Source: an uncultured virus (IMG/VR IMGVR_UViG_3300035502_000498) (taxonomy: Duplodnaviria > Heunggongvirae > Uroviricota > Caudoviricetes). Taken from it: 20,000 nucleotides of DNA. Made by a program: the position numbers and the translations under genes. Below are positions 1 through 19,945 of this stretch, one piece after another. Every line of letters starts with the position of its first letter. Position 1 is the first letter of the stretch. Under the pieces are notes generated by a model that saw only the letters and a program-made list of their open reading frames with translations, was not told the origin of the DNA and ran no database searches. The stretch lies in the IMG/VR virus record IMGVR_UViG_3300035502_000498, one strand, 5' to 3'.

Positions 1-22
1 CAGAGCTCTTTCACCTCCACTA
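1..22 (+). ncRNA. possible truncated 3' end of a tmRNA or tRNA-Ala (window edge)
   Basis: CACCTCC-A-CTA (12-22) matches the 3' acceptor strand of tmRNA/tRNA-Ala (U70 for a G3-U70 pair, A73). It is followed directly by a terminator and lies in a tRNA cluster. The 5' part is outside the window. Confidence 0.25.
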
Positions 23-28
23 TGAGCC

Positions 29-73
29 AAAACTCAGATTCAGCACCTCGTTAGGAATCTGAGTTTTTATTTT
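29..73 (+). terminator. intrinsic terminator
   Basis: 13-bp perfect stem AAAACTCAGATTC (29-41)/GAATCTGAGTTTT (55-67) running into a T-rich tract. Confidence 0.75.
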
Positions 74-137
74 CCAAATACGAATTTCACTAAATAGGAA
101 TCCAACCTAAATTATTGCACATAAATACTTATCTTAT

Positions 138-213
138 GCGGAAGTAGTTCAAGCTAGTAGAATCTTGGTGACCAATCAAGCAATGTGGGTGCAAATCCCA
201 CCTTCCTGCTCCA
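138..213 (+). tRNA. degenerate tRNA-Gly-like gene, apparent anticodon ACC
   Basis: GCGGAAG acceptor 5' strand, GTTC/GAAT D-stem, CTTGG/TCAAG anticodon stem with loop TGACCAA (ACC at 171-173), GTGGG-TGCAAAT-CCCAC T-arm, U73 and encoded CCA (Gly identity). Defects: extra T in the acceptor 3' strand, G33, no D-loop GG. Confidence 0.65.
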
Positions 214-223
214 TTTATGTTTT

Positions 224-298
224 GCAGGTGTAGCTTAATTGGTAAAGCTCCGATCTCCAAAGTCGATGTAGATGTAAGTTCGAGTCCTACCACCTGTG
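224..298 (+). tRNA. trnW: tRNA-Trp (CCA)
   Basis: Cloverleaf GCAGGTG/CACCTGT, GCTT/AAGC D-stem with TGG loop, anticodon loop CTCCAAA (CCA 257-259), TTCGAGT T-loop, G73. No encoded CCA end. One mismatch each in the anticodon and T stems. Confidence 0.85.
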
Positions 299-381
299 AA
301 TGATATTCAGATAATTAAGATTTCTCTTTTTATCTTTATCAAAAATTTCTCTAACTGTAATTATAATCGGAGGATATTCAA

Positions 382-1122
382 ATGTCAAGTAAACTATCAG
401 TAGAAGCAGCTCAAAAAGTTAGAGATCTGGCAGAGAAAGCAGCACCACATCGTCTTACAATCATGGATGATTTGTCCAAGAAAATGCGTTTCTTGCGTCA
501 GAGTTTTGTTTTGCATTTTGTCAAAGACATAAACAAAAAGAAAGATAAAGAACTTTATGTGGCAACCAAAATAGCACAAGAGAAGATTTTTCGTAAAGTT
601 AAAGACTATATTCATTATGAAGGTGAAGAATCTCCAAATAAGGCTTATGACGGGCTCAATAAATTGGAGAAGGTTTTGGATGAAGTTCAAATCGCAGTTC
701 AGTATCTTCGCTATATAGGCCACACAGATAACTTGGATAAACTTCTTGCAGATAGAAGTATGGCCATTACATGCAGAGCTCTTGAAGCAACCAATGAAGT
801 TCTTGCAGATGAAGAAGTAAAAGATAATATCACAAAAGTATTTGCTTCTGCAGATAAAACACAGACTCAAATTTGTATAGAAGCAAATACAATCAAAGAA
901 GATATCTATAATGAACTTGAAGAACACATTAAGTATGATGCCAAACATAATAAATCAGGTTTAAAATCCAATGAATTTGATAAACTTACAACTTTGGAAG
1001 CAATCAGACAGAAATCTGAAGATGCTGCAGAGAAGAAGTTGGATTCTATGAAAGATTCAATTGGAAACACTATAGACTCTCAATTAAATGTGCAAACTGT
1101 CGCACAGACTATCGCAGGATAG
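382..1122 (+). CDS. hypothetical helical protein (C-terminal part weakly resembles T4 DsbA/GapR-type DNA-binding proteins)
   Basis: 246-aa ORF with GGAGG RBS at 369-373; function inferred only from a loose motif resemblance. Confidence 0.8.
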   Translation: MSSKLSVEAAQKVRDLAEKAAPHRLTIMDDLSKKMRFLRQSFVLHFVKDINKKKDKELYVATKIAQEKIFRKVKDYIHYEGEESPNKAYDGLNKLEKVLDEVQIAVQYLRYIGHTDNLDKLLADRSMAITCRALEATNEVLADEEVKDNITKVFASADKTQTQICIEANTIKEDIYNELEEHIKYDAKHNKSGLKSNEFDKLTTLEAIRQKSEDAAEKKLDSMKDSIGNTIDSQLNVQTVAQTIAG

Positions 1123-1162
1123 TTATTTTTCTTTCAGAATTCCTAGTATATGATAATCTATC

Positions 1163-1200
1163 ACCTCCTGTGTATTAGTTAGTAACTAATTATAGGAGGT
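1163..1200 (+). promoter_or_regulatory. RBS-sequestering hairpin upstream of ORF 1208
   Basis: ACCTCCTGTG(T)ATTAGTT pairs with AACTAATTATAGGAGGT (~17 bp, one bulge), burying the AGGAGG SD. Confidence 0.65.
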
Positions 1201-1207
1201 TTTTATT

Positions 1208-1423
1208 ATGGATACAGAAGAAAACAAACAAGCTCAAGAAAAGATTAATTCAGATTCTTCGTTTGGTTATTTGTTAGCAATTATTATGGGTCTTATGTCT
1301 TTTGGAAATTCAAGTCCTAGTTTTGATATATCAAAATATGAGTTCGATTCTCTAAGAGATAGGTATCATGAACTAGATAAACGTGTTGCTCTTATTGAAG
1401 CAAAACTTTCTTCCAAAGAATGA
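1208..1423 (+). CDS. small protein with a hydrophobic segment and C-terminal coiled coil
   Basis: 71 aa, AGGAGG RBS, hydrophobic FGYLLAIIMGLMSFG, heptad-like LRDRYHELDKRVALIEAKL. Confidence 0.75.
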   Translation: MDTEENKQAQEKINSDSSFGYLLAIIMGLMSFGNSSPSFDISKYEFDSLRDRYHELDKRVALIEAKLSSKE

Positions 1424-1425
1424 AT

Positions 1426-1659
1426 TTAAGACTTTGTGAAACCGAGTAGGATGAACACTGACTTAGGCAGTTTGAATAGGAAACTGAAATCTCATCTTTG
1501 CTCAAAGATGCATTAAGTAGCAAGGCTCTGGGGACTCAGTCGGGAACGGACAGGAGAATAAATTTTGTACAGTTCAAGTGCACGATCGCTGACTAAAAGT
1601 TCCGAAGCGATTAATAAATTAAAGAACTTAGGTTTGGGTGTTTCTCCTTAAAACACCCA
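1426..1659 (+). ncRNA. unidentified structured ncRNA candidate (~235 nt)
   Basis: No listed ORF. Closing helix TTAAG/CTTAG + CTTT/AAAG (1426-35/1621-31); hairpins CAGTTT/AAACTG, TGTAC/GTGCA, ATCGCT/AGCGAT; terminal 9-bp hairpin 1635-1659 whose loop CTCCT complements AGGAG at 1552-1556. Ends 3 nt before tRNA-Met. Confidence 0.55.
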
Positions 1660-1662
1660 CAT

Positions 1663-1740
<78 letters not shown>

Positions 1741-1751
1741 TTATACAGAAC

Positions 1752-2215
1752 ATTGACAAATCGATATAATAGGATAGCATGGCTGAATAATCCTTTGATC
1801 GGGATAAGGCATTGCAAGTAGAGAGGTGGAATTCCTCTTCATAAATCTGTCAAGATTGAATGTTTGCAAATTATGGCTATATTCGGGCATAAGGCACAAA
1901 TAGAGCTAAGAGAGAAGGTTGAGAAATCACCAAGATTCTCTAAGGTTGCACCCTGAATAGTTCCTGTATTTGGTTCGAGCTGAGTAATTGTGCAATATAA
2001 CCATGCATATATTACGTATTCAGATCACAGTGAGATTTCGGTAACCAATCCGAACTAACTTTAAACTCTGTACAGAGGCTTTATAACATGATGTTGAGAA
2101 CAGCTGCTCCCAAAGTGTTGTAATTGGTTAGAAGCCTTTAGGTGTCTAGGGAATATAAGTGTTTAAGAGTAAAAACATAAAGCTCTTTGCTATCCTACTA
2201 TATCGATTTGTCAAT
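1752..2215 (+). ncRNA. large ornate ncRNA, ROOL-like
   Basis: 28-bp terminal inverted repeat (1752-1779/2188-2215, one mismatch), more than 10 internal stems, a perfect 8-bp loop-distal pairing TAACCAAT(2042-49)/ATTGGTTA(2123-30), and a position right after a tRNA in a phage. The ROOL assignment rests on recalled resemblance and context. Confidence 0.7.
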
Positions 2216-2267
2216 ATCTTCTATTTTGGAATTTAATCTTCCAGAACAGAAAATGGAGAGATTTTAT

Positions 2268-2510
2268 ATGTCAGAGTTAAAACAAAAGTTTGTATCCATT
2301 GCTCAAGTTGCTTTAATTGAGTTTTCTTTAAATCATCCAGGACATTGCGTTGTTGGCAAGATGATGGAAGGAATTCTTGATCTTTCAGAGGAAGAAATCT
2401 CAAAAGCATATGAAGCGCATGAAGAATTATCATCAGCAGTTGATGAATACATATTGTATCAATTCACTGCAGGAAGAAATGGATTTAAAAAACCTTCTTG
2501 GTTGAATTAG
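2268..2510 (+). CDS. hypothetical protein (80 aa; start reassigned from 2187)
   Basis: GGAG at 2255-2258 before in-frame ATG 2268; the upstream TTG lies at the ncRNA closing stem. Confidence 0.7.
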   Translation: MSELKQKFVSIAQVALIEFSLNHPGHCVVGKMMEGILDLSEEEISKAYEAHEELSSAVDEYILYQFTAGRNGFKKPSWLN

Positions 2511-2537
2511 TTCCTTTAGTATGAGGAGAGTTAAATA

Positions 2538-2786
2538 ATGCAAGAATCTGCAGATTGGTTTTTGGAGCACATAGAGTTTATATCCAGAGATGAATCAAGT
2601 GTGAGAGCACAATTATCTTTTAAGAAACAGAAACATCAATTTCCATTACATTCACGTTGGCAAGTTTTGGAATCCTGCTTCGATATAGATAATGGTGTTT
2701 TCAGCTCTTTACATCCAGGACAGTCCTATATTCTTATGTTTGATGAAAATATGATCTGCAGAGAGTTTCGTTTTCAATTACATTAA
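2538..2786 (+). CDS. hypothetical protein
   Basis: 82-aa ORF, GAGGAG RBS. Confidence 0.7.
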   Translation: MQESADWFLEHIEFISRDESSVRAQLSFKKQKHQFPLHSRWQVLESCFDIDNGVFSSLHPGQSYILMFDENMICREFRFQLH

Positions 2787-2830
2787 TAATGCATAGGGAA
2801 ATTATTGCATACAAGAAAATGGAGGTTCAC

Positions 2831-3103
2831 ATGACCGATAGATCAATTATTGTATCCAATGAAGTAGAATTGTCTCAAAATGAAAAAGGTCAATTTATAG
2901 TTCATAGACCTGGAAGCAATCCATATCCTATTAAACCTACTTCAAGCACATACTTCATTGTGAAGATTTTAGATTTACGTTGCGATGCACAGAAGCGTAA
3001 ATATGATTATGCCAATGACGTTATCCATTCTTTGCAAAAGAAGTTGGAACGTATTGAAAGCACTTTTTGGTATAAATCTTTGCATTTATTCGGACTTATA
3101 TAA
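2831..3103 (+). CDS. hypothetical protein (90 aa; start reassigned from 2789)
   Basis: GGAGG at 2821-2825 before in-frame ATG 2831. Confidence 0.7.
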   Translation: MTDRSIIVSNEVELSQNEKGQFIVHRPGSNPYPIKPTSSTYFIVKILDLRCDAQKRKYDYANDVIHSLQKKLERIESTFWYKSLHLFGLI

Positions 3104-3118
3104 GCACGGGAGTTAAAT

Positions 3119-4075
3119 ATGGACGAAATATTAGAAGCCATCATAAATATTAATACAAATGAAGATTGGGAAGATGCAGAAGAAAGTACTGCAAGCTTCC
3201 CAAGCGAAGACTTGCCTTTGGATATATGGGACAAAGTAGATGACACCTATAAACTCAAACCAGAACTCAAAGAAACGATCTTGGATGCATTGTCTCAATA
3301 TCCAGATGCTGATCTTTTGGACATGGCTCAAAGTATTAAGATTGTTGGTTCCATTGGTACTAATCTTTATGATGAAGATGCCGATATTGATGTCCATGTT
3401 GAACCAAAGTCTGAAGCACTTGAAGGAAAAACTCCCGAAGAACTGGAACAATTCCAACGAGATGTAATGAATTGGTTCAAAAATGAAAGAGAAGAAAAAG
3501 GTTGGTTTGTAGATCAGCACCCAATGGAAGTATATTTCTCATTGGCTCCAGTTCAAGATTATTTTTCAGATACAGTCTATGATTTACTAACAGATGAATG
3601 GATTAAACCAGTTAAGAAATATGCAATGGACTATGACCCATTTACTGCATATGGAGATGTTCTTACCGAACTAGATGAAGTAGCAGCACCTGCAGATATT
3701 CTTCTTGGAAAGATTAAAAGAGCTCTTGACTATATAGACAGAATTCATAAAGGAAAAGGTGCAGAAGATTTAGTTCAACCTCATCTTCAAGAAATCAAAG
3801 ATTCTGTCTTGGCTCTCAAAGAATGTAAAGAAAACTGGAGACTCATTCGTAGAAGAAATTCTGTAGAACTTCCAGATGAATTACCAGATGATATTACTAC
3901 TTTAGAACAGCCTGATGCATGGAAACATGATAATAACATTTTCAAACTTCTTGATGGTTCTTCTTATTTTGCAGTTGTTAATAGCTTAGCCAAGTTATTA
4001 GATGCCAATGGAGAATTAGTTGAAGATGCTCCAGAACAAGCAAGAAAGATTCTTTCTGATTTCTATTCTAAATAA
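3119..4075 (+). CDS. Pol-beta superfamily nucleotidyltransferase of large phages
   Basis: hG[S]x(n)DhD motif IVGSIGTNLYDEDADIDVHV, third carboxylate in HPMEVYF, helical C-terminal domain. Confidence 0.8.
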   Translation: MDEILEAIININTNEDWEDAEESTASFPSEDLPLDIWDKVDDTYKLKPELKETILDALSQYPDADLLDMAQSIKIVGSIGTNLYDEDADIDVHVEPKSEALEGKTPEELEQFQRDVMNWFKNEREEKGWFVDQHPMEVYFSLAPVQDYFSDTVYDLLTDEWIKPVKKYAMDYDPFTAYGDVLTELDEVAAPADILLGKIKRALDYIDRIHKGKGAEDLVQPHLQEIKDSVLALKECKENWRLIRRRNSVELPDELPDDITTLEQPDAWKHDNNIFKLLDGSSYFAVVNSLAKLLDANGELVEDAPEQARKILSDFYSK

Positions 4076-4108
4076 TTTCTTTTCTTAGATTAAAAGGAGA
4101 GAATCATA

Positions 4109-4612
4109 ATGGATCTAGAAAAATTAGCAGAAGAAGCACATAAAAATACTGCAAGATATGCAGCTGCTACTTCTCAATCAGAGTATTTTAATACTCTTCA
4201 AGAAAATCAATGTCATGAGTTATGTTCTTCAGGAAAATGCAAAGCAGATTGTTGTGGATGTGCAAGTTTATTGGAATCTTCTTTTAAAAGACTGAAGAAG
4301 TTTATTCCAGATAACACAGAATATCATCTTGTTAAAACAAAAGAAAATGGATTTGTTTATGTTAAGCCAGTAACTCCAAATTTCAAATGCGTTTTCTTAA
4401 CAAAAGATTGTAGTTGCTCAATATACAATTCTCATCTAAGACCTGAATACTGTAAGAGATTTGGTGAAGATGCATCAGAACCACTTTATGCTTGTACGTA
4501 CATCAATGAAGAAATGAAAGAAGAGATACAAGAGTTCGCTAGATTATACTTGGCTCAACAGGCAAGAAATGGCAATCCAGTAGCGAAACATGTATTAAAA
4601 CAGCAAGACTAA
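4109..4612 (+). CDS. YkgJ/FliB-like cysteine-cluster (CxxCxxCC) Zn/Fe-chelating protein
   Basis: CSSGKCKADCC ... CVFL...CSIY...RPEYCKRFG signature; AGGAG RBS. Confidence 0.82.
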   Translation: MDLEKLAEEAHKNTARYAAATSQSEYFNTLQENQCHELCSSGKCKADCCGCASLLESSFKRLKKFIPDNTEYHLVKTKENGFVYVKPVTPNFKCVFLTKDCSCSIYNSHLRPEYCKRFGEDASEPLYACTYINEEMKEEIQEFARLYLAQQARNGNPVAKHVLKQQD

Positions 4613-4626
4613 TTTCACTATCGATA

Positions 4627-4655
4627 TTGTATTCCTTATCATTAATTGCTACTAT
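4627..4655 (+). promoter_or_regulatory. sigma70-type promoter
   Basis: TTGTAT (4627-32), 17-nt spacer, TACTAT (4650-55) with extended -10 TG, in an intergenic gap. Confidence 0.55.
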
Positions 4656-4724
4656 CTAGTTCTCCGAACGAAACAGAATGTTTCAGAATTTTAATTCTTG
4701 GAAAGAATTAAAGGAGAACATTCT

Positions 4725-4970
4725 ATGATAGTAGCAAATTATTTTGCTTCAACGGAGTTTTTGAAGTTGATGGAGCAACTAGACGCTGAGGATCTGAGTC
4801 CAAAAGGTAAAGCTGCATTGGAACGTCTTAAGACGAAATTGCTTTTATTCAAATGTCCTTCTTGTGGAAAACCTCTTGGGCTGTCTCACAGTTTTTCTGC
4901 ATGGAGTGAAGCATTTATGGAAGATTGGAAAGCAGAAATGGAAGAGCTCCTAGCAAGGAGGAACTCATGA
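4725..4970 (+). CDS. small protein with CxxC knuckle (start reassigned from 4698)
   Basis: AAGGAG RBS 4711-16, ATG 4725; motif KCPSCGKPLGLSH. Confidence 0.72.
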   Translation: MIVANYFASTEFLKLMEQLDAEDLSPKGKAALERLKTKLLLFKCPSCGKPLGLSHSFSAWSEAFMEDWKAEMEELLARRNS

Positions 4971-5848
4971 GAACTTCAGCAAAACAAAAAGTATATGAGA
5001 CAAGATGGTCTCATGCAGAAAAAGAAAAATCTATGCAACGTAGATTGAATAAGTATTATATAGATATCAATGATAGGTTAAGAAATACAAAGGAGAAAAT
5101 TATGGAAACAGTTACAGACACAGAATGGACGTTACAAGATCTAAATAAGTTGAAATCAAATAAGGACAGACCAATGAATGAGTTGCTTTTGATACTTAAA
5201 AACAAGTTCAATGCAGATCAGATCAGAGAAATGAAAGCTAAGATTATTTCTGAACTCACAAAAGAAGGAACACCAAAAGCCAAAAGAGGATTCTCATGCA
5301 AGTTCTCAGATGAACAATTCAAAATCTTATATGAAAATCGCGAGTCTACAAGAAATGCATTTTTGTTGAAATATCCAGAATTCAGAAAGATTGCTGCAGA
5401 ATCAACAATTGGTTGGTACTTAAATTCTATTCGAGCAGAAATTAAAGGAACTCAAACTCATTTATCTCAACACTTTTATGATTTAGTCAGATTGTGGTAT
5501 AATAATTCTCATCCAGTCCCAATGCCAAAGCGTGGTGCAACTTCTGTCAGATATCTTGCACGAGCTAGGAAAAATAATACAGAAGAAAAGGAAGTCTCTA
5601 CAGAATCTTCTACCATAAAAATCGTAGAACACTTGCCAATTAAACCAGAACCAGTTCAAGAAGTAGATCCAAGTACTTTGGGCTTTTCCAAAGAAGCAAA
5701 AGTGAAATTTGGTTTAATAGTAGATGGTGTCGTTAGAGTTATTGGGGAAACTAAAGAGCATATAGAAGGTGCAGAAATGGTATACCGACAAATAGGCTTA
5801 ACCTCAAATATTCAACGAGTCAAACTCCTCGTTGAAACTCTTCAGTAG
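4967..5848 (+). CDS. putative DNA-binding protein with two Myb/SANT-like helical repeats (start reassigned from 4925)
   Basis: AAGGAGG RBS and ATGA overlap with the upstream stop; repeats WTLQDLNKLKSN...FNADQIREM and FSDEQFKILYEN...AESTIGWY; basic composition. Confidence 0.65.
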   Translation: MRTSAKQKVYETRWSHAEKEKSMQRRLNKYYIDINDRLRNTKEKIMETVTDTEWTLQDLNKLKSNKDRPMNELLLILKNKFNADQIREMKAKIISELTKEGTPKAKRGFSCKFSDEQFKILYENRESTRNAFLLKYPEFRKIAAESTIGWYLNSIRAEIKGTQTHLSQHFYDLVRLWYNNSHPVPMPKRGATSVRYLARARKNNTEEKEVSTESSTIKIVEHLPIKPEPVQEVDPSTLGFSKEAKVKFGLIVDGVVRVIGETKEHIEGAEMVYRQIGLTSNIQRVKLLVETLQ

Positions 5849-5897
5849 AAGAGAAAATACCTAAAACATTCCTAACATCCGGAAGGATGTTCTCCAT

Positions 5898-5928
5898 AGG
5901 GTTCTTCATAAGAGAACCCTTTTCTTTT
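5898..5928 (+). terminator. intrinsic terminator, preceded by a GGAA-tetraloop hairpin at 5874-5891
   Basis: AGGGTTCT/AGAACCCT 8-bp stem followed by TTTCTTTT. Confidence 0.75.
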
Positions 5929-5946
5929 GTCATCCTAAATTATAAT

Positions 5947-6099
5947 ATGAATCCAAAATATTTAACACCATTTTTTGCATTCCTTATAGGCTTCTGCCTT
6001 AGTTTTGCAATGTTCTGTTTGTTTGAGCTTTTATGGGCAGATGTCGAATTCTTTCCAAATCCAGAGACTCAAGCAATAGAAAAGATTAATAATAAATAA
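5947..6099 (+). CDS. small single-pass membrane protein (50 aa; start reassigned from 5887)
   Basis: Hydrophobic FFAFLIGFCLSFAMFCLFELLW. The upstream extension overlaps a terminator. No SD, so possibly leaderless. Confidence 0.6.
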   Translation: MNPKYLTPFFAFLIGFCLSFAMFCLFELLWADVEFFPNPETQAIEKINNK

Positions 6100-18329: not shown

Positions 18330-18668
18330 ATGAAAGAACTAGAGTTATTAAAAAGGGCATTATATGAAGCAGAAGACAACGCTATGCTTTCTGATCAATT
18401 TCAAACAAATTCCAAAGATTCTGGTCTTGTTTTCGATGGGAAGATAAGATATGAGGGTGATTCTAAAATTCATCTTGATTTAAACATATCTTTACCAGCA
18501 TACACACAATCTTATATAACCAAGACCGAATACAAAGAAATATCAGAAGATCAATTTTCAGAAGCATCAAAGAAAATTCAGAATGCATTGCAAGAAGTTT
18601 CTGAAACTTTTGCAACTGAATTAAAGAATAAACTTGCTTCTTATGGCTTAATACAAGGAGGACAGTAG
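18330..18668 (+). CDS. hypothetical protein
   Basis: 112-aa ORF; no SD; LYE motif near the N-terminus. Confidence 0.7.
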   Translation: MKELELLKRALYEAEDNAMLSDQFQTNSKDSGLVFDGKIRYEGDSKIHLDLNISLPAYTQSYITKTEYKEISEDQFSEASKKIQNALQEVSETFATELKNKLASYGLIQGGQ

Positions 18669-19945
18669 TGGGCAACATTAAAAACCGCATTGAATCAAAA
18701 ATTCAGGAAATATATGGTGAAGAAGCAGAAAACATCATGCCTGTAATAGAAGTAAAAGATTCCGAAGATGGAATGGAAGTAGAAGTTAGAACAGAACTTG
18801 ATTATGAAGGAATGACTGCTCTTGCAAAAGAATTGAATCCAATTGTTAAAAAATATGATAAAGATGCATATTTTGATCAATACTCTTCTGGAGTTATGGT
18901 TGCAAATATTCAAGGAACTGTAAATGAAGCAGAAGATGATAATGAAGATGGTGCTGAAATCGAATTAGATGATGTAGAACTTGAAGAAGAACCAATTGAA
19001 GGTGAAGAAGCAAAAGAAGAAAATCATATGGAAAAGTTCTCGGCAATGGTAAGATTAAGTCTTGCATCTGAACATGAAACTGCAGCTGAATACACAAAAA
19101 GAGCTGCAAAATGCGAAAAACATGGAATGGAAGATGCAGCAAAATTATTTAGAGACATTGCTGAAGAAGAAATAGTTCATGCTGGAGAGTTTCAATCACT
19201 TTTAGAAAAATATGGTTTACTTAATCAAGAAGCAATAGATCAAGGTGAGCAAGAAGGAAACGAAATCCTTGCTGGAGATAAAGAAGAACCAGAAATCGAT
19301 GCTCCAGAAGTTCCTGCAGATGATATGGAAAATGAATCTGTAAATGAAGATATTTCAGATAAAGGAGATTTAGTTTACAGAATAGCAGCAATTAAACAAT
19401 ACACTACTGCAGAAGATCATTCTGCTATTACACTTTTAAGAGAACTTTCTCGTTATTTAGACATAGATGAATTCAAAGGATTCTATGAATACTTAATGAA
19501 AGAATATGATATAGATCCAAGAGAACAATTCCCTGGAGACTATGAAGATAAAGAAGAGTCTGTAAACGAAGATGCAGAATTCCATGTTATTCAATACAAC
19601 AAGAAAGATTCAGGATATAATCCAACTACAAAATACAACTGTAATTCAATGGCAGAAGTAAGAGGAATCTTCAAAGGACACTCAGCATTGAATATAGTGG
19701 ATAAAATCGAAGTATTCAAAGGTGATAAACTTGTTTACATTGGAACCCCAGAAATCAAAGAAGGTTCTAAAAGATACAGTGTAAAATGGACTAAAGCAAC
19801 TGCATCAGAAGACGCATCTTCAGCAGGAACAGTTGCTTCTTTAGGTGCTGCTCCAACTGCAGTTGTTGGAAAGAAACCTGTCGAAGCAAAAGAAACAAGA
19901 ATTTGCGAAGAGTTAAAAGCTCTTCAAGAAGCATTGAAAGGATAA
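18668..19945 (+). CDS. modular acidic protein containing a half-ferritin (rubrerythrin/encapsulin-Flp-like) domain
   Basis: GTG start with AGGAGG RBS; E..E...EY...A...FRDIAEEEIVHAGEF di-iron motif at aa ~125-180; three (T/S)VNE motifs. Confidence 0.8.
   Translation: MGNIKNRIESKIQEIYGEEAENIMPVIEVKDSEDGMEVEVRTELDYEGMTALAKELNPIVKKYDKDAYFDQYSSGVMVANIQGTVNEAEDDNEDGAEIELDDVELEEEPIEGEEAKEENHMEKFSAMVRLSLASEHETAAEYTKRAAKCEKHGMEDAAKLFRDIAEEEIVHAGEFQSLLEKYGLLNQEAIDQGEQEGNEILAGDKEEPEIDAPEVPADDMENESVNEDISDKGDLVYRIAAIKQYTTAEDHSAITLLRELSRYLDIDEFKGFYEYLMKEYDIDPREQFPGDYEDKEESVNEDAEFHVIQYNKKDSGYNPTTKYNCNSMAEVRGIFKGHSALNIVDKIEVFKGDKLVYIGTPEIKEGSKRYSVKWTKATASEDASSAGTVASLGAAPTAVVGKKPVEAKETRICEELKALQEALKG

Follow-up and report, generated by a model that had tools for sequence, protein, structure and literature searches.

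A compact ROOL-like non-coding RNA beside a phage tRNA-Met gene

The window analysed here is a 20,000-nt stretch of an uncultured virus of the class Caudoviricetes (IMG/VR IMGVR_UViG_3300035502_000498). Its 24 scanned proteins include a GroEL, tail-like proteins, a polynucleotide-kinase phosphatase domain (PF25109; 17827–18315) and an acidic 425-aa protein with a ferritin/rubrerythrin-like domain (18668–19945), and the host replicon appears to be a large tailed phage. The 246-aa protein encoded upstream of the RNA described below has 19 relatives on contigs of at most 174 kb, one of which is Siphoviridae sp. ctYh54, so that the jumbo-type phage of the original prediction is not borne out. A nucleotidyltransferase-like protein (Pfam PF22600, below the cut-off) is encoded at 3119–4075; this protein and the one with the PF25109 domain, which both lie near tRNAs, possibly have RNA end-repair functions. 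The gene for tRNA-Trp (223–299) is preceded by a tRNA-like sequence with a CCA end (138–213), missed by ARAGORN, which scores 25.9 bits against the tRNA model (below its cut-off); its anticodon arm is unusual and its acceptor stem contains a bulge. A perfect sigma-70 consensus on the minus strand (388–360; 12 of 12 positions, 17-nt spacer) points back to this tRNA pair and overlaps the start of the gene for the 246-aa protein.

The tRNA-Met(CAU) gene, which we take to be of the initiator type (C1:A72 mismatch and three G-C pairs in the anticodon stem), is followed, 11 nt after its CCA, by a 464-nt element (Table 1). The terminal arms of the element pair at 27 of 28 positions (self-BLAST E 1e-7), in agreement with the near-perfect 28-bp inverted repeat noted earlier, and form the longest of the 292 inverted pairs in the window, where the element is present as a single copy. 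Its ends, as given here, are taken from this closing helix rather than mapped. Inside the element the plus strand has no ORF of at least 50 aa; on the minus strand a 52-aa ORF starting with TTG (1741–1899) overlaps it, and a TTG-started frame overlaps its last 29 nt. The direction of the tRNA, the use of G-U pairs and the orientation of the motifs suggest that the plus strand is the functional one. A promoter scan of the window gave 15 sites, with 12.5 expected, and the two that fell inside the closing helix were not credited.

A second non-coding stretch (1424–1662) lies directly 5' of tRNA-Met and ends in a hairpin (~1637–1659). It has no Rfam match at E ≤ 10, a weak fold (z −1.4) and no match in the compared loci; a single RNA contig (1452–1611, depth 78) was found there in one of the four runs described below. 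It is possibly a second small RNA or a leader.

Table 1. Coordinates of the element, its predicted parts and phage RNAs that share its first hairpin
Feature	Position	Strand	Basis or remark
tRNA-Met(CAU)	1663..1740	+	encoded CCA
Compact ROOL-like non-coding RNA, 464 nt	1752..2215	+	closing helix, RNA contigs, model
Closing helix, 5' arm	1752..1779	+	pairs with 2188–2215, 27/28
First hairpin, asymmetric internal loop, manA/L082 type	1780..1811	+	L082 match, partial match to Rfam manA
Three-way junction 1812–20/1861–69, two hairpins	1812..1869	+	ROOL consensus has three hairpins
Long-range three-part helix, 5' strand	1878..1895	+	pairs with 2134–2157, −14.9 kcal/mol
Helix 1897–1908/1958–1972 around reduced central domain	1897..1972	+	top 2–5%
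Candidate pseudoknot 1945–51/1990–96	1945..1996	+	top 0.3%; place of ROOL junction-to-linker pseudoknot
Loop-E-type internal loop, linker helix, UU, hairpin	1979..2054	+	descriptor match
3' junction	2055..2127	+	match to ROOL 3'-domain model, 14.8 bits, E 0.0095
Last hairpin before closing helix, as in ROOL	2165..2187	+	model, ROOL consensus
Closing helix, 3' arm	2188..2215	+	pairs with 1752–1779
Phage RNAs with manA-type first hairpin	L107 1304–1533; L116 2470–2698; L117 1359–1570		below Rfam manA cut-off
Phage RNAs with manA-type first hairpin	L119 2471–2698; L110 ~2359–2553		below Rfam manA cut-off
Phage RNAs with manA-type first hairpin	L109 448–804; L122 ~2480–2880		below Rfam manA cut-off

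Of 24 runs listed for the stretch, we examined the four best, each a contig-level metatranscriptome of an animal gut, and left out the other 20, which share few words with it; the four were chosen for holding the stretch and possibly come from one campaign. RNA contigs that match exactly over 1840/1856–2125 are found in all four, with depths of 513–1083; of 30 bins over positions 1–6000, only 3–5 are covered and 25–27 are empty, and the protein genes reach at most 0.8. We read this cover as transcription of the element because even carry-over of DNA would not give such a pattern. The contigs give no strand, ends or level, abundance here meaning contig depth only, and they reach neither end of the element, where a gap in contigs proves nothing. 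The element is almost certainly a real structured RNA.

The whole 464 nt is more stable than each of 100 shuffled sequences (z −4.2; −5.8 for the minus strand). This value is due to the closing helix, since the interior alone has z ~0 on both strands and 23 of 40 shuffles are equally good. The interiors of five true ROOLs themselves reach only −0.6 to −2.8, and the value for the interior therefore does not rule structure out; energy alone neither supports nor excludes the inner stems of the element.

The Infernal-type check against Rfam did not confirm the earlier assignment of the element to the ROOL family. Neither ROOL nor GOLLD matched at E ≤ 10, the ROOL model (RF03087, cut-off 99.1 bits) not even on a 481-nt stretch alone, and at cut-off only tRNAs were recognised in the window; the control, the ROOL of L. 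salivarius, scored 130 bits in the same ROOL model. A match to snoZ107 was dismissed as chance, being on the wrong strand and from the wrong kingdom. An nhmmer profile built from nine ROOLs recovers held-out ROOLs (27 and 32 bits) but misses the element, and none of the 57 matches that a model of the ROOL centre (R3) gives at E ≤ 5 falls within it. With a model of the ROOL 3' domain, the element comes first in the window (Table 1), apparently a weak match, as the held-out L. salivarius ROOL scores 24.5 bits and a locus sharing only the motif (L095) 24.7 bits. That locus and L097 carry, at ~1500–1535 on the minus strand, an intergenic ROOL-type hairpin of GUGAAA and UAACCAAU with no Rfam ROOL match, which suggests chance or another relative.

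The resemblance to ROOL lies in the parts and their order, which in the 3' half of the element follows the ROOL consensus. A pattern made from this 3' part retrieved 20 viral loci, nine of them Rfam ROOLs (eight distinct). One of these, L082 (1158–1656), is a ROOL of 499 nt from a phage record of 206 kb, with a tRNA ~24 nt upstream; it passes the ROOL cut-off, at 110 bits, with its centre unaligned. Its first hairpin is of the manA type and matches positions 1780–1814 at 83% over 35 nt (E 1.3e-5); L082 had been picked on its 3' motif, independently of this match. Such a first hairpin occurs in only one of the eight distinct viral ROOLs. A descriptor of the module of loop E, linker helix, UU and hairpin matches five of nine ROOLs, two of 14 manA-like RNAs and the window once (at 1979), with no match in 3000 shuffles or in 745 kb of unrelated loci; it was written knowing the sequence of the element, and canonical manA RNAs fail it.

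Like a typical ROOL, the element follows a phage tRNA, is abundant (by contig depth) and has a long closing helix, a first hairpin leading to a multiway junction, long-range helices that wrap the centre and the 3' domain (with one-sided variation only), a loop E with linker helix, a UU and UAAYCAAU-loop hairpin (variant A, described below, departs at loop E), a putative long 3' stem with a GC-centred loop, a last hairpin and a loop-to-linker kissing contact. It differs in its two junction hairpins instead of three, its 33-nt linker, the lack of any model match and its one-stem centre of ~50 nt, which has neither the kissing hairpin of bridge B4 nor the GAAA-capped hairpin of bridge B2. At 464 nt it is also, as the original prediction had it, shorter than typical: a ROOL is expected to measure near 500–660 nt, the average is 581 nt according to the accessible part of PMC5737381, and the shortest ROOL found here has 499 nt. 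As for the three pseudoknots of the ROOL consensus, a candidate for the junction-to-linker pairing is present and B4 has collapsed, and inspection by eye did not find the linker-to-3'-stem pairing in the element. The ROOL central domain is missing or unrecognisable. Thus, the element is ROOL-like on present evidence, yet not a member of the family by the tests applied; that it has a ROOL-related fold is nonetheless quite probable. An L082-like or shorter subfamily may already stand in published ROOL alignments.

Using L082 and the ROOL consensus as guides, we drew a ROOL-type structure of 135 pairs by hand. Its energy of −111 to −116 kcal/mol (pseudoknots uncounted) lies 16–20 kcal/mol above the computed minimum of −131 kcal/mol. 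Ranked against alternatives, the long-range helix, the linker helix and the pseudoknot fall in the top 0.3%, the kissing contact in the top 1%, the inner helix in the top 2–5% and the 3' closing stem in the top 9–12%, percentages that are optimistic, since we selected the helix windows by eye and already knew the sequence. For the helix 1878–95/2134–57, 0.3% of windows of the element and 0.08% of the background are equally good. The central domain consists of one GAAA-capped stem (1911–1941), the further central hairpins of ROOL being absent. In the loop-E module, the linker helix (1987–92/2026–31) holds the 33-nt variable linker and is followed by the UU and a hairpin with the loop 2042–2049. 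The 3' junction comprises a small hairpin (2066–77) and a long stem (2081–2123) whose loop contains a palindrome (2101–2106), a candidate self-kissing site.

Two natural variants come from the same data of four runs. Variant A, pooled from two contigs, has 24 substitutions and three indels over 1840–2125; relative B is more distant and collinear with the element. The 24 substitutions break none or one of the pairs of the hand-drawn model, according to the alignment adopted for a 3-nt deletion, compared with 6.95 expected (P≤1 0.0006; the pseudoknot 1945–51/1990–96 was left out of this count). Five of the changes lie in regions that we had selected knowing the variants; when these are set aside, 0 of 19 break a pair (P 0.0006, or 0.006 when restricted to pairs covered on both sides). 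Changes at 1898, 1905, 1928 and 1938 preserve pairing in the 1897–1972 region, and five pairs of the candidate pseudoknot remain in variant A, whereas the two outer ones are lost. The 3-nt deletion lies within the loop-E module and removes three bases of loop E itself. Each change that preserves pairing affects one side of a helix only, and no two-sided change supports the ROOL-type model; the computed minimum-energy fold has one two-sided change (1984/2015). The changes of relative B at 1875–77 are unpaired in the ROOL-type model and paired in the computed fold, and those at 1866–69 have partners outside its cover. We rejected the minimum-energy fold as a working model, since conserved loop motifs are paired in it and since, by a hand count, variant A disrupts ~5 of its positions where 8.6 would be expected.

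These results bear on the original prediction of a region filled with stems. All 12 of the listed complementary pairs are present, and both they and the closing repeat are real as sequence, but the interior does not exceed chance by energy alone and several inner stems are contradicted. Homology or the variants support ATCCT/GGGAT, AATCT-GTCA-AGATT, TTCGG/CCGAA and the AGAGAA/TTCTCT stem with its GAAA tetraloop; AGAGG/CCTCT is unchanged in the variants where covered. The variants speak against TTATG/CATAA (position 1872 changes in both) and CTGAATA/TATTCAG (a change at 2021 and an insertion at 2018); CTCTG/CAGAG forms a stem of 4 bp whose loop varies. TGGTT/AACCA and the long-range TTCCT(1961–65)/GGGAA(2149–53) clash with ROOL-type helices. 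GCCTT (2134–38), which had been paired with AAGGC at 1806–10, more likely pairs with a second AAGGC at 1891–95, because in the first hairpin 1806–10 forms the conserved 3' strand. The 8-bp loop pairing 2042–49/2123–30 exists as sequence and ranks in the top 0.5% within the element, but it competes with a ROOL-type stem, and its partner strand lies outside the cover of the variant contigs. Several of the proposed stems and pseudoknots are thus probably not real ones.

In the solved env-120 ROOL, according to the accessible part of PMC12286853, bridge B1 joins the loop of the first hairpin to the bases that directly follow the linker, B2 involves a GAAA loop, B4 pairs GGUA with UACC, B5 stacks an A of the GUAA-loop hairpin and B6 is a GC self-kiss. 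We took these bridges from its Supplementary Table 2 and placed them by eye on the printed sequence. Across nine ROOLs and the element, loops scored against their own flanks reach a kissing-contact score of 98, compared with 71.6 for permuted combinations (p 6e-5), and the loop/flank pair of the element is the best in its row and column; two of the ROOLs are close kin, three pair poorly, and 5% of 9-mers from the element reach its score. Loop 1795–1800 is a candidate kissing partner of 2023–2027, a contact that corresponds to B1, and candidates for B1, B5 and B6 appear to be kept in the element. It has no elements of B2 and B3, and of B4 no more than a short local pairing is left, so that the element lacks part of the ROOL cage interface. 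We give its predicted self-assembly an even chance.

The first hairpin points to manA, a link that was absent from the original ROOL interpretation. The CUGAAUAA/UAAGGY internal loop of the manA first hairpin is present in the element, and Rfam manA (RF01745) has a partial match there (29 nt, model positions 25–60, E 8.1), whose 9.2 bits compare with 55.2 bits required over the 192-position model; our model R2 is circular for this hairpin. A pattern of the first hairpin retrieved 22 viral and 10 genome loci, one of which (L106) is the L082 record. Fifteen of these 32 loci, chosen for an extended match, were scanned, and 11 matched manA, three of them above the cut-off. The outer pair of the hairpin is G-C in eight and A-U in three of the 11 manA-like rows. 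Measured by their closing helices, the manA-like RNAs are 195, 212, 228, 229, 230 and 357 nt long (L122, by eye, ~420 nt), and two of 229 nt carry the ROOL loop-E/linker module with a covarying flanking pair. The seven phage RNAs of Table 1 have long closing helices, and several sit among tRNAs; that of L122 follows a GOLLD RNA containing tRNA-like sequence.

The element thus shares with manA a first hairpin that is almost letter for letter the same, with a covarying outer pair, and, in the consensus, a closing helix, a junction and a UU followed by a GUA..AAUCC hairpin; both are phage-borne, manA often beside tRNAs. In contrast, manA RNAs are ~160–230 nt long and have neither wrapped long-range helices nor a 3' junction. 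They form 8-, 10- and 60-mers, as stated in the accessible part of 10.64898/2026.07.01.735769, which names ROOL four times and, in that part, claims no kinship with manA. Our literature search, with subscription papers and several supplements outside its reach, found no paper linking manA and ROOL. We propose tentatively, at somewhat less than even odds, that manA, the 195–420-nt phage RNAs, the element and ROOL form one superfamily of self-assembling phage RNAs. Its core would be the closing helix, first hairpin, junction, loop-E/linker helix and UU-hairpin, with domains added or lost, and the element would be an intermediate with the outer frame of ROOL and the first hairpin of manA, but without the full centre.

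Other readings of the element are less probable. It could belong to an unrelated new class of large phage RNA that borrowed, or converged on, common building blocks (the first hairpin, the loop-E motif and the GUAA-loop hairpin) and may act as a monomer or with protein. Every whole-family model fails on the element, as would be expected in that case. Its first hairpin recurs in L109 and L122, RNAs that are built quite differently, and so may be a mobile module. Loop E, too, is a common motif. It is listed in many RNA families (PMC13085918, accessible part). We consider such a class unlikely because some ten elements, among them long-range helices and a kissing contact that covaries with that of ROOL, are ordered and spaced as in ROOL. 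Less likely still is an ordinary ROOL, assembling into the usual hexamer or octamer, that the Rfam model missed. L082 does pass the cut-off with its central part unaligned, and by eye GGU (1917–19) and ACCAA (1929–33) occur in the order of bridge B4. The centre of ~50 nt, however, falls short of the roughly 95–140 nt of ROOLs, the GAAA hairpin of B2 and the B4-presenting hairpin are absent, and 16 helices and five junctions are common to the solved ROOLs (10.1101/2025.04.15.649049, accessible part).

An expanded manA RNA, that is, a manA core with insertions that assembles via manA-type pentamers, would fit the first hairpin, whose pattern finds manA in 11 of 15 scanned loci; it is very unlikely as manA models match only 1782–1814 and manA has neither the 3' junction nor the long-range helices, which are characteristic of ROOL. 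GOLLD (RF02032) is likewise large, phage-borne, tRNA-linked and cage-forming, and one member follows Met-tRNA (PMC12286853, accessible part), but GOLLD RNAs measure 700 to >800 nt and have another consensus, to which the element has no Rfam match. The conserved 3' domain of GOLLD, for which 150 bits would be required, is not recognised in the element either; the GOLLD model does match L122. A MITE or other DNA element with terminal inverted repeats is brought to mind by the 28-bp repeat and the lack of an ORF, in a search confined to the 20-kb window. The check for it proposed earlier found no scattered copies in that window, the element being there once, and no target-site duplication of 2–9 nt within 5 nt of either end. 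With the RNA cover and the structure-keeping variation, and with similar closing helices in ROOL and manA-like RNAs, this reading is largely refuted and of only marginal probability.

Searches for relatives of the whole element returned little. Among the best 20 of 638 matches to phage records, full-length homologues were absent and only tRNAs matched; the element alone gave a best E of 0.5 against phage records (88 records) and of 0.4 against plasmids. DNA patterns taken from it retrieved 18 and 60 viral stretches with no homologue, and other patterns none from viruses or metagenomes; L024 was rejected as a chance match. Searches with the neighbouring proteins gave no confirmed locus, despite the 19 relatives of the 246-aa protein, and the GroEL and 246-aa protein of the window are absent from five ROOL- or manA-bearing phage records.

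Starting from what is observed directly (the sequence, the closing helix, the presence in RNA libraries and the order of the motifs), we favour, with a probability of about 0.6, the reading that the element is an abundant phage-encoded non-coding RNA that descends from ROOL, or shares an ancestor with it, and has had its central domain cut down. The original interpretation would then hold for a large, structured, tRNA-linked phage RNA with a ROOL-like frame that is not a MITE, and not for Rfam ROOL membership. The element would be co-transcribed with tRNA-Met and cut free just behind the CCA end of the tRNA, and its 27-bp closing helix would shield both RNA ends and allow the RNA to accumulate. 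It would fold on the ROOL frame, and copies could join via a kissing contact between the loop of the first hairpin (1796–1800) and the linker flank (2023–27), and further through the self-complementary loop 2101–06 and stacking of the 2042–49 loop. The outcome might be a closed oligomer, of a size other than the ROOL octamer because elements of B2, B3 and probably B4 are missing or collapsed. Its most likely role would be that of an RNA-only scaffold or container tied to phage tRNA and translation supply, which may soak up host nucleases. ROOL itself is abundant and non-essential in L. salivarius and has no known function (accessible parts of PMC12286853 and PMC5643018).

ROOL, GOLLD and manA form protein-free RNA cages. 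A natural, abundant RNA with the frame but without the centre shows which parts selection keeps, and the element predicts which contacts suffice for cage assembly. If the proposed superfamily is real, the cage formed by the element should have a new geometry. Should manA and ROOL have a core in common, two cage families that have been studied separately would become one series, from ~160 to 600 nt, of which Rfam misses members.
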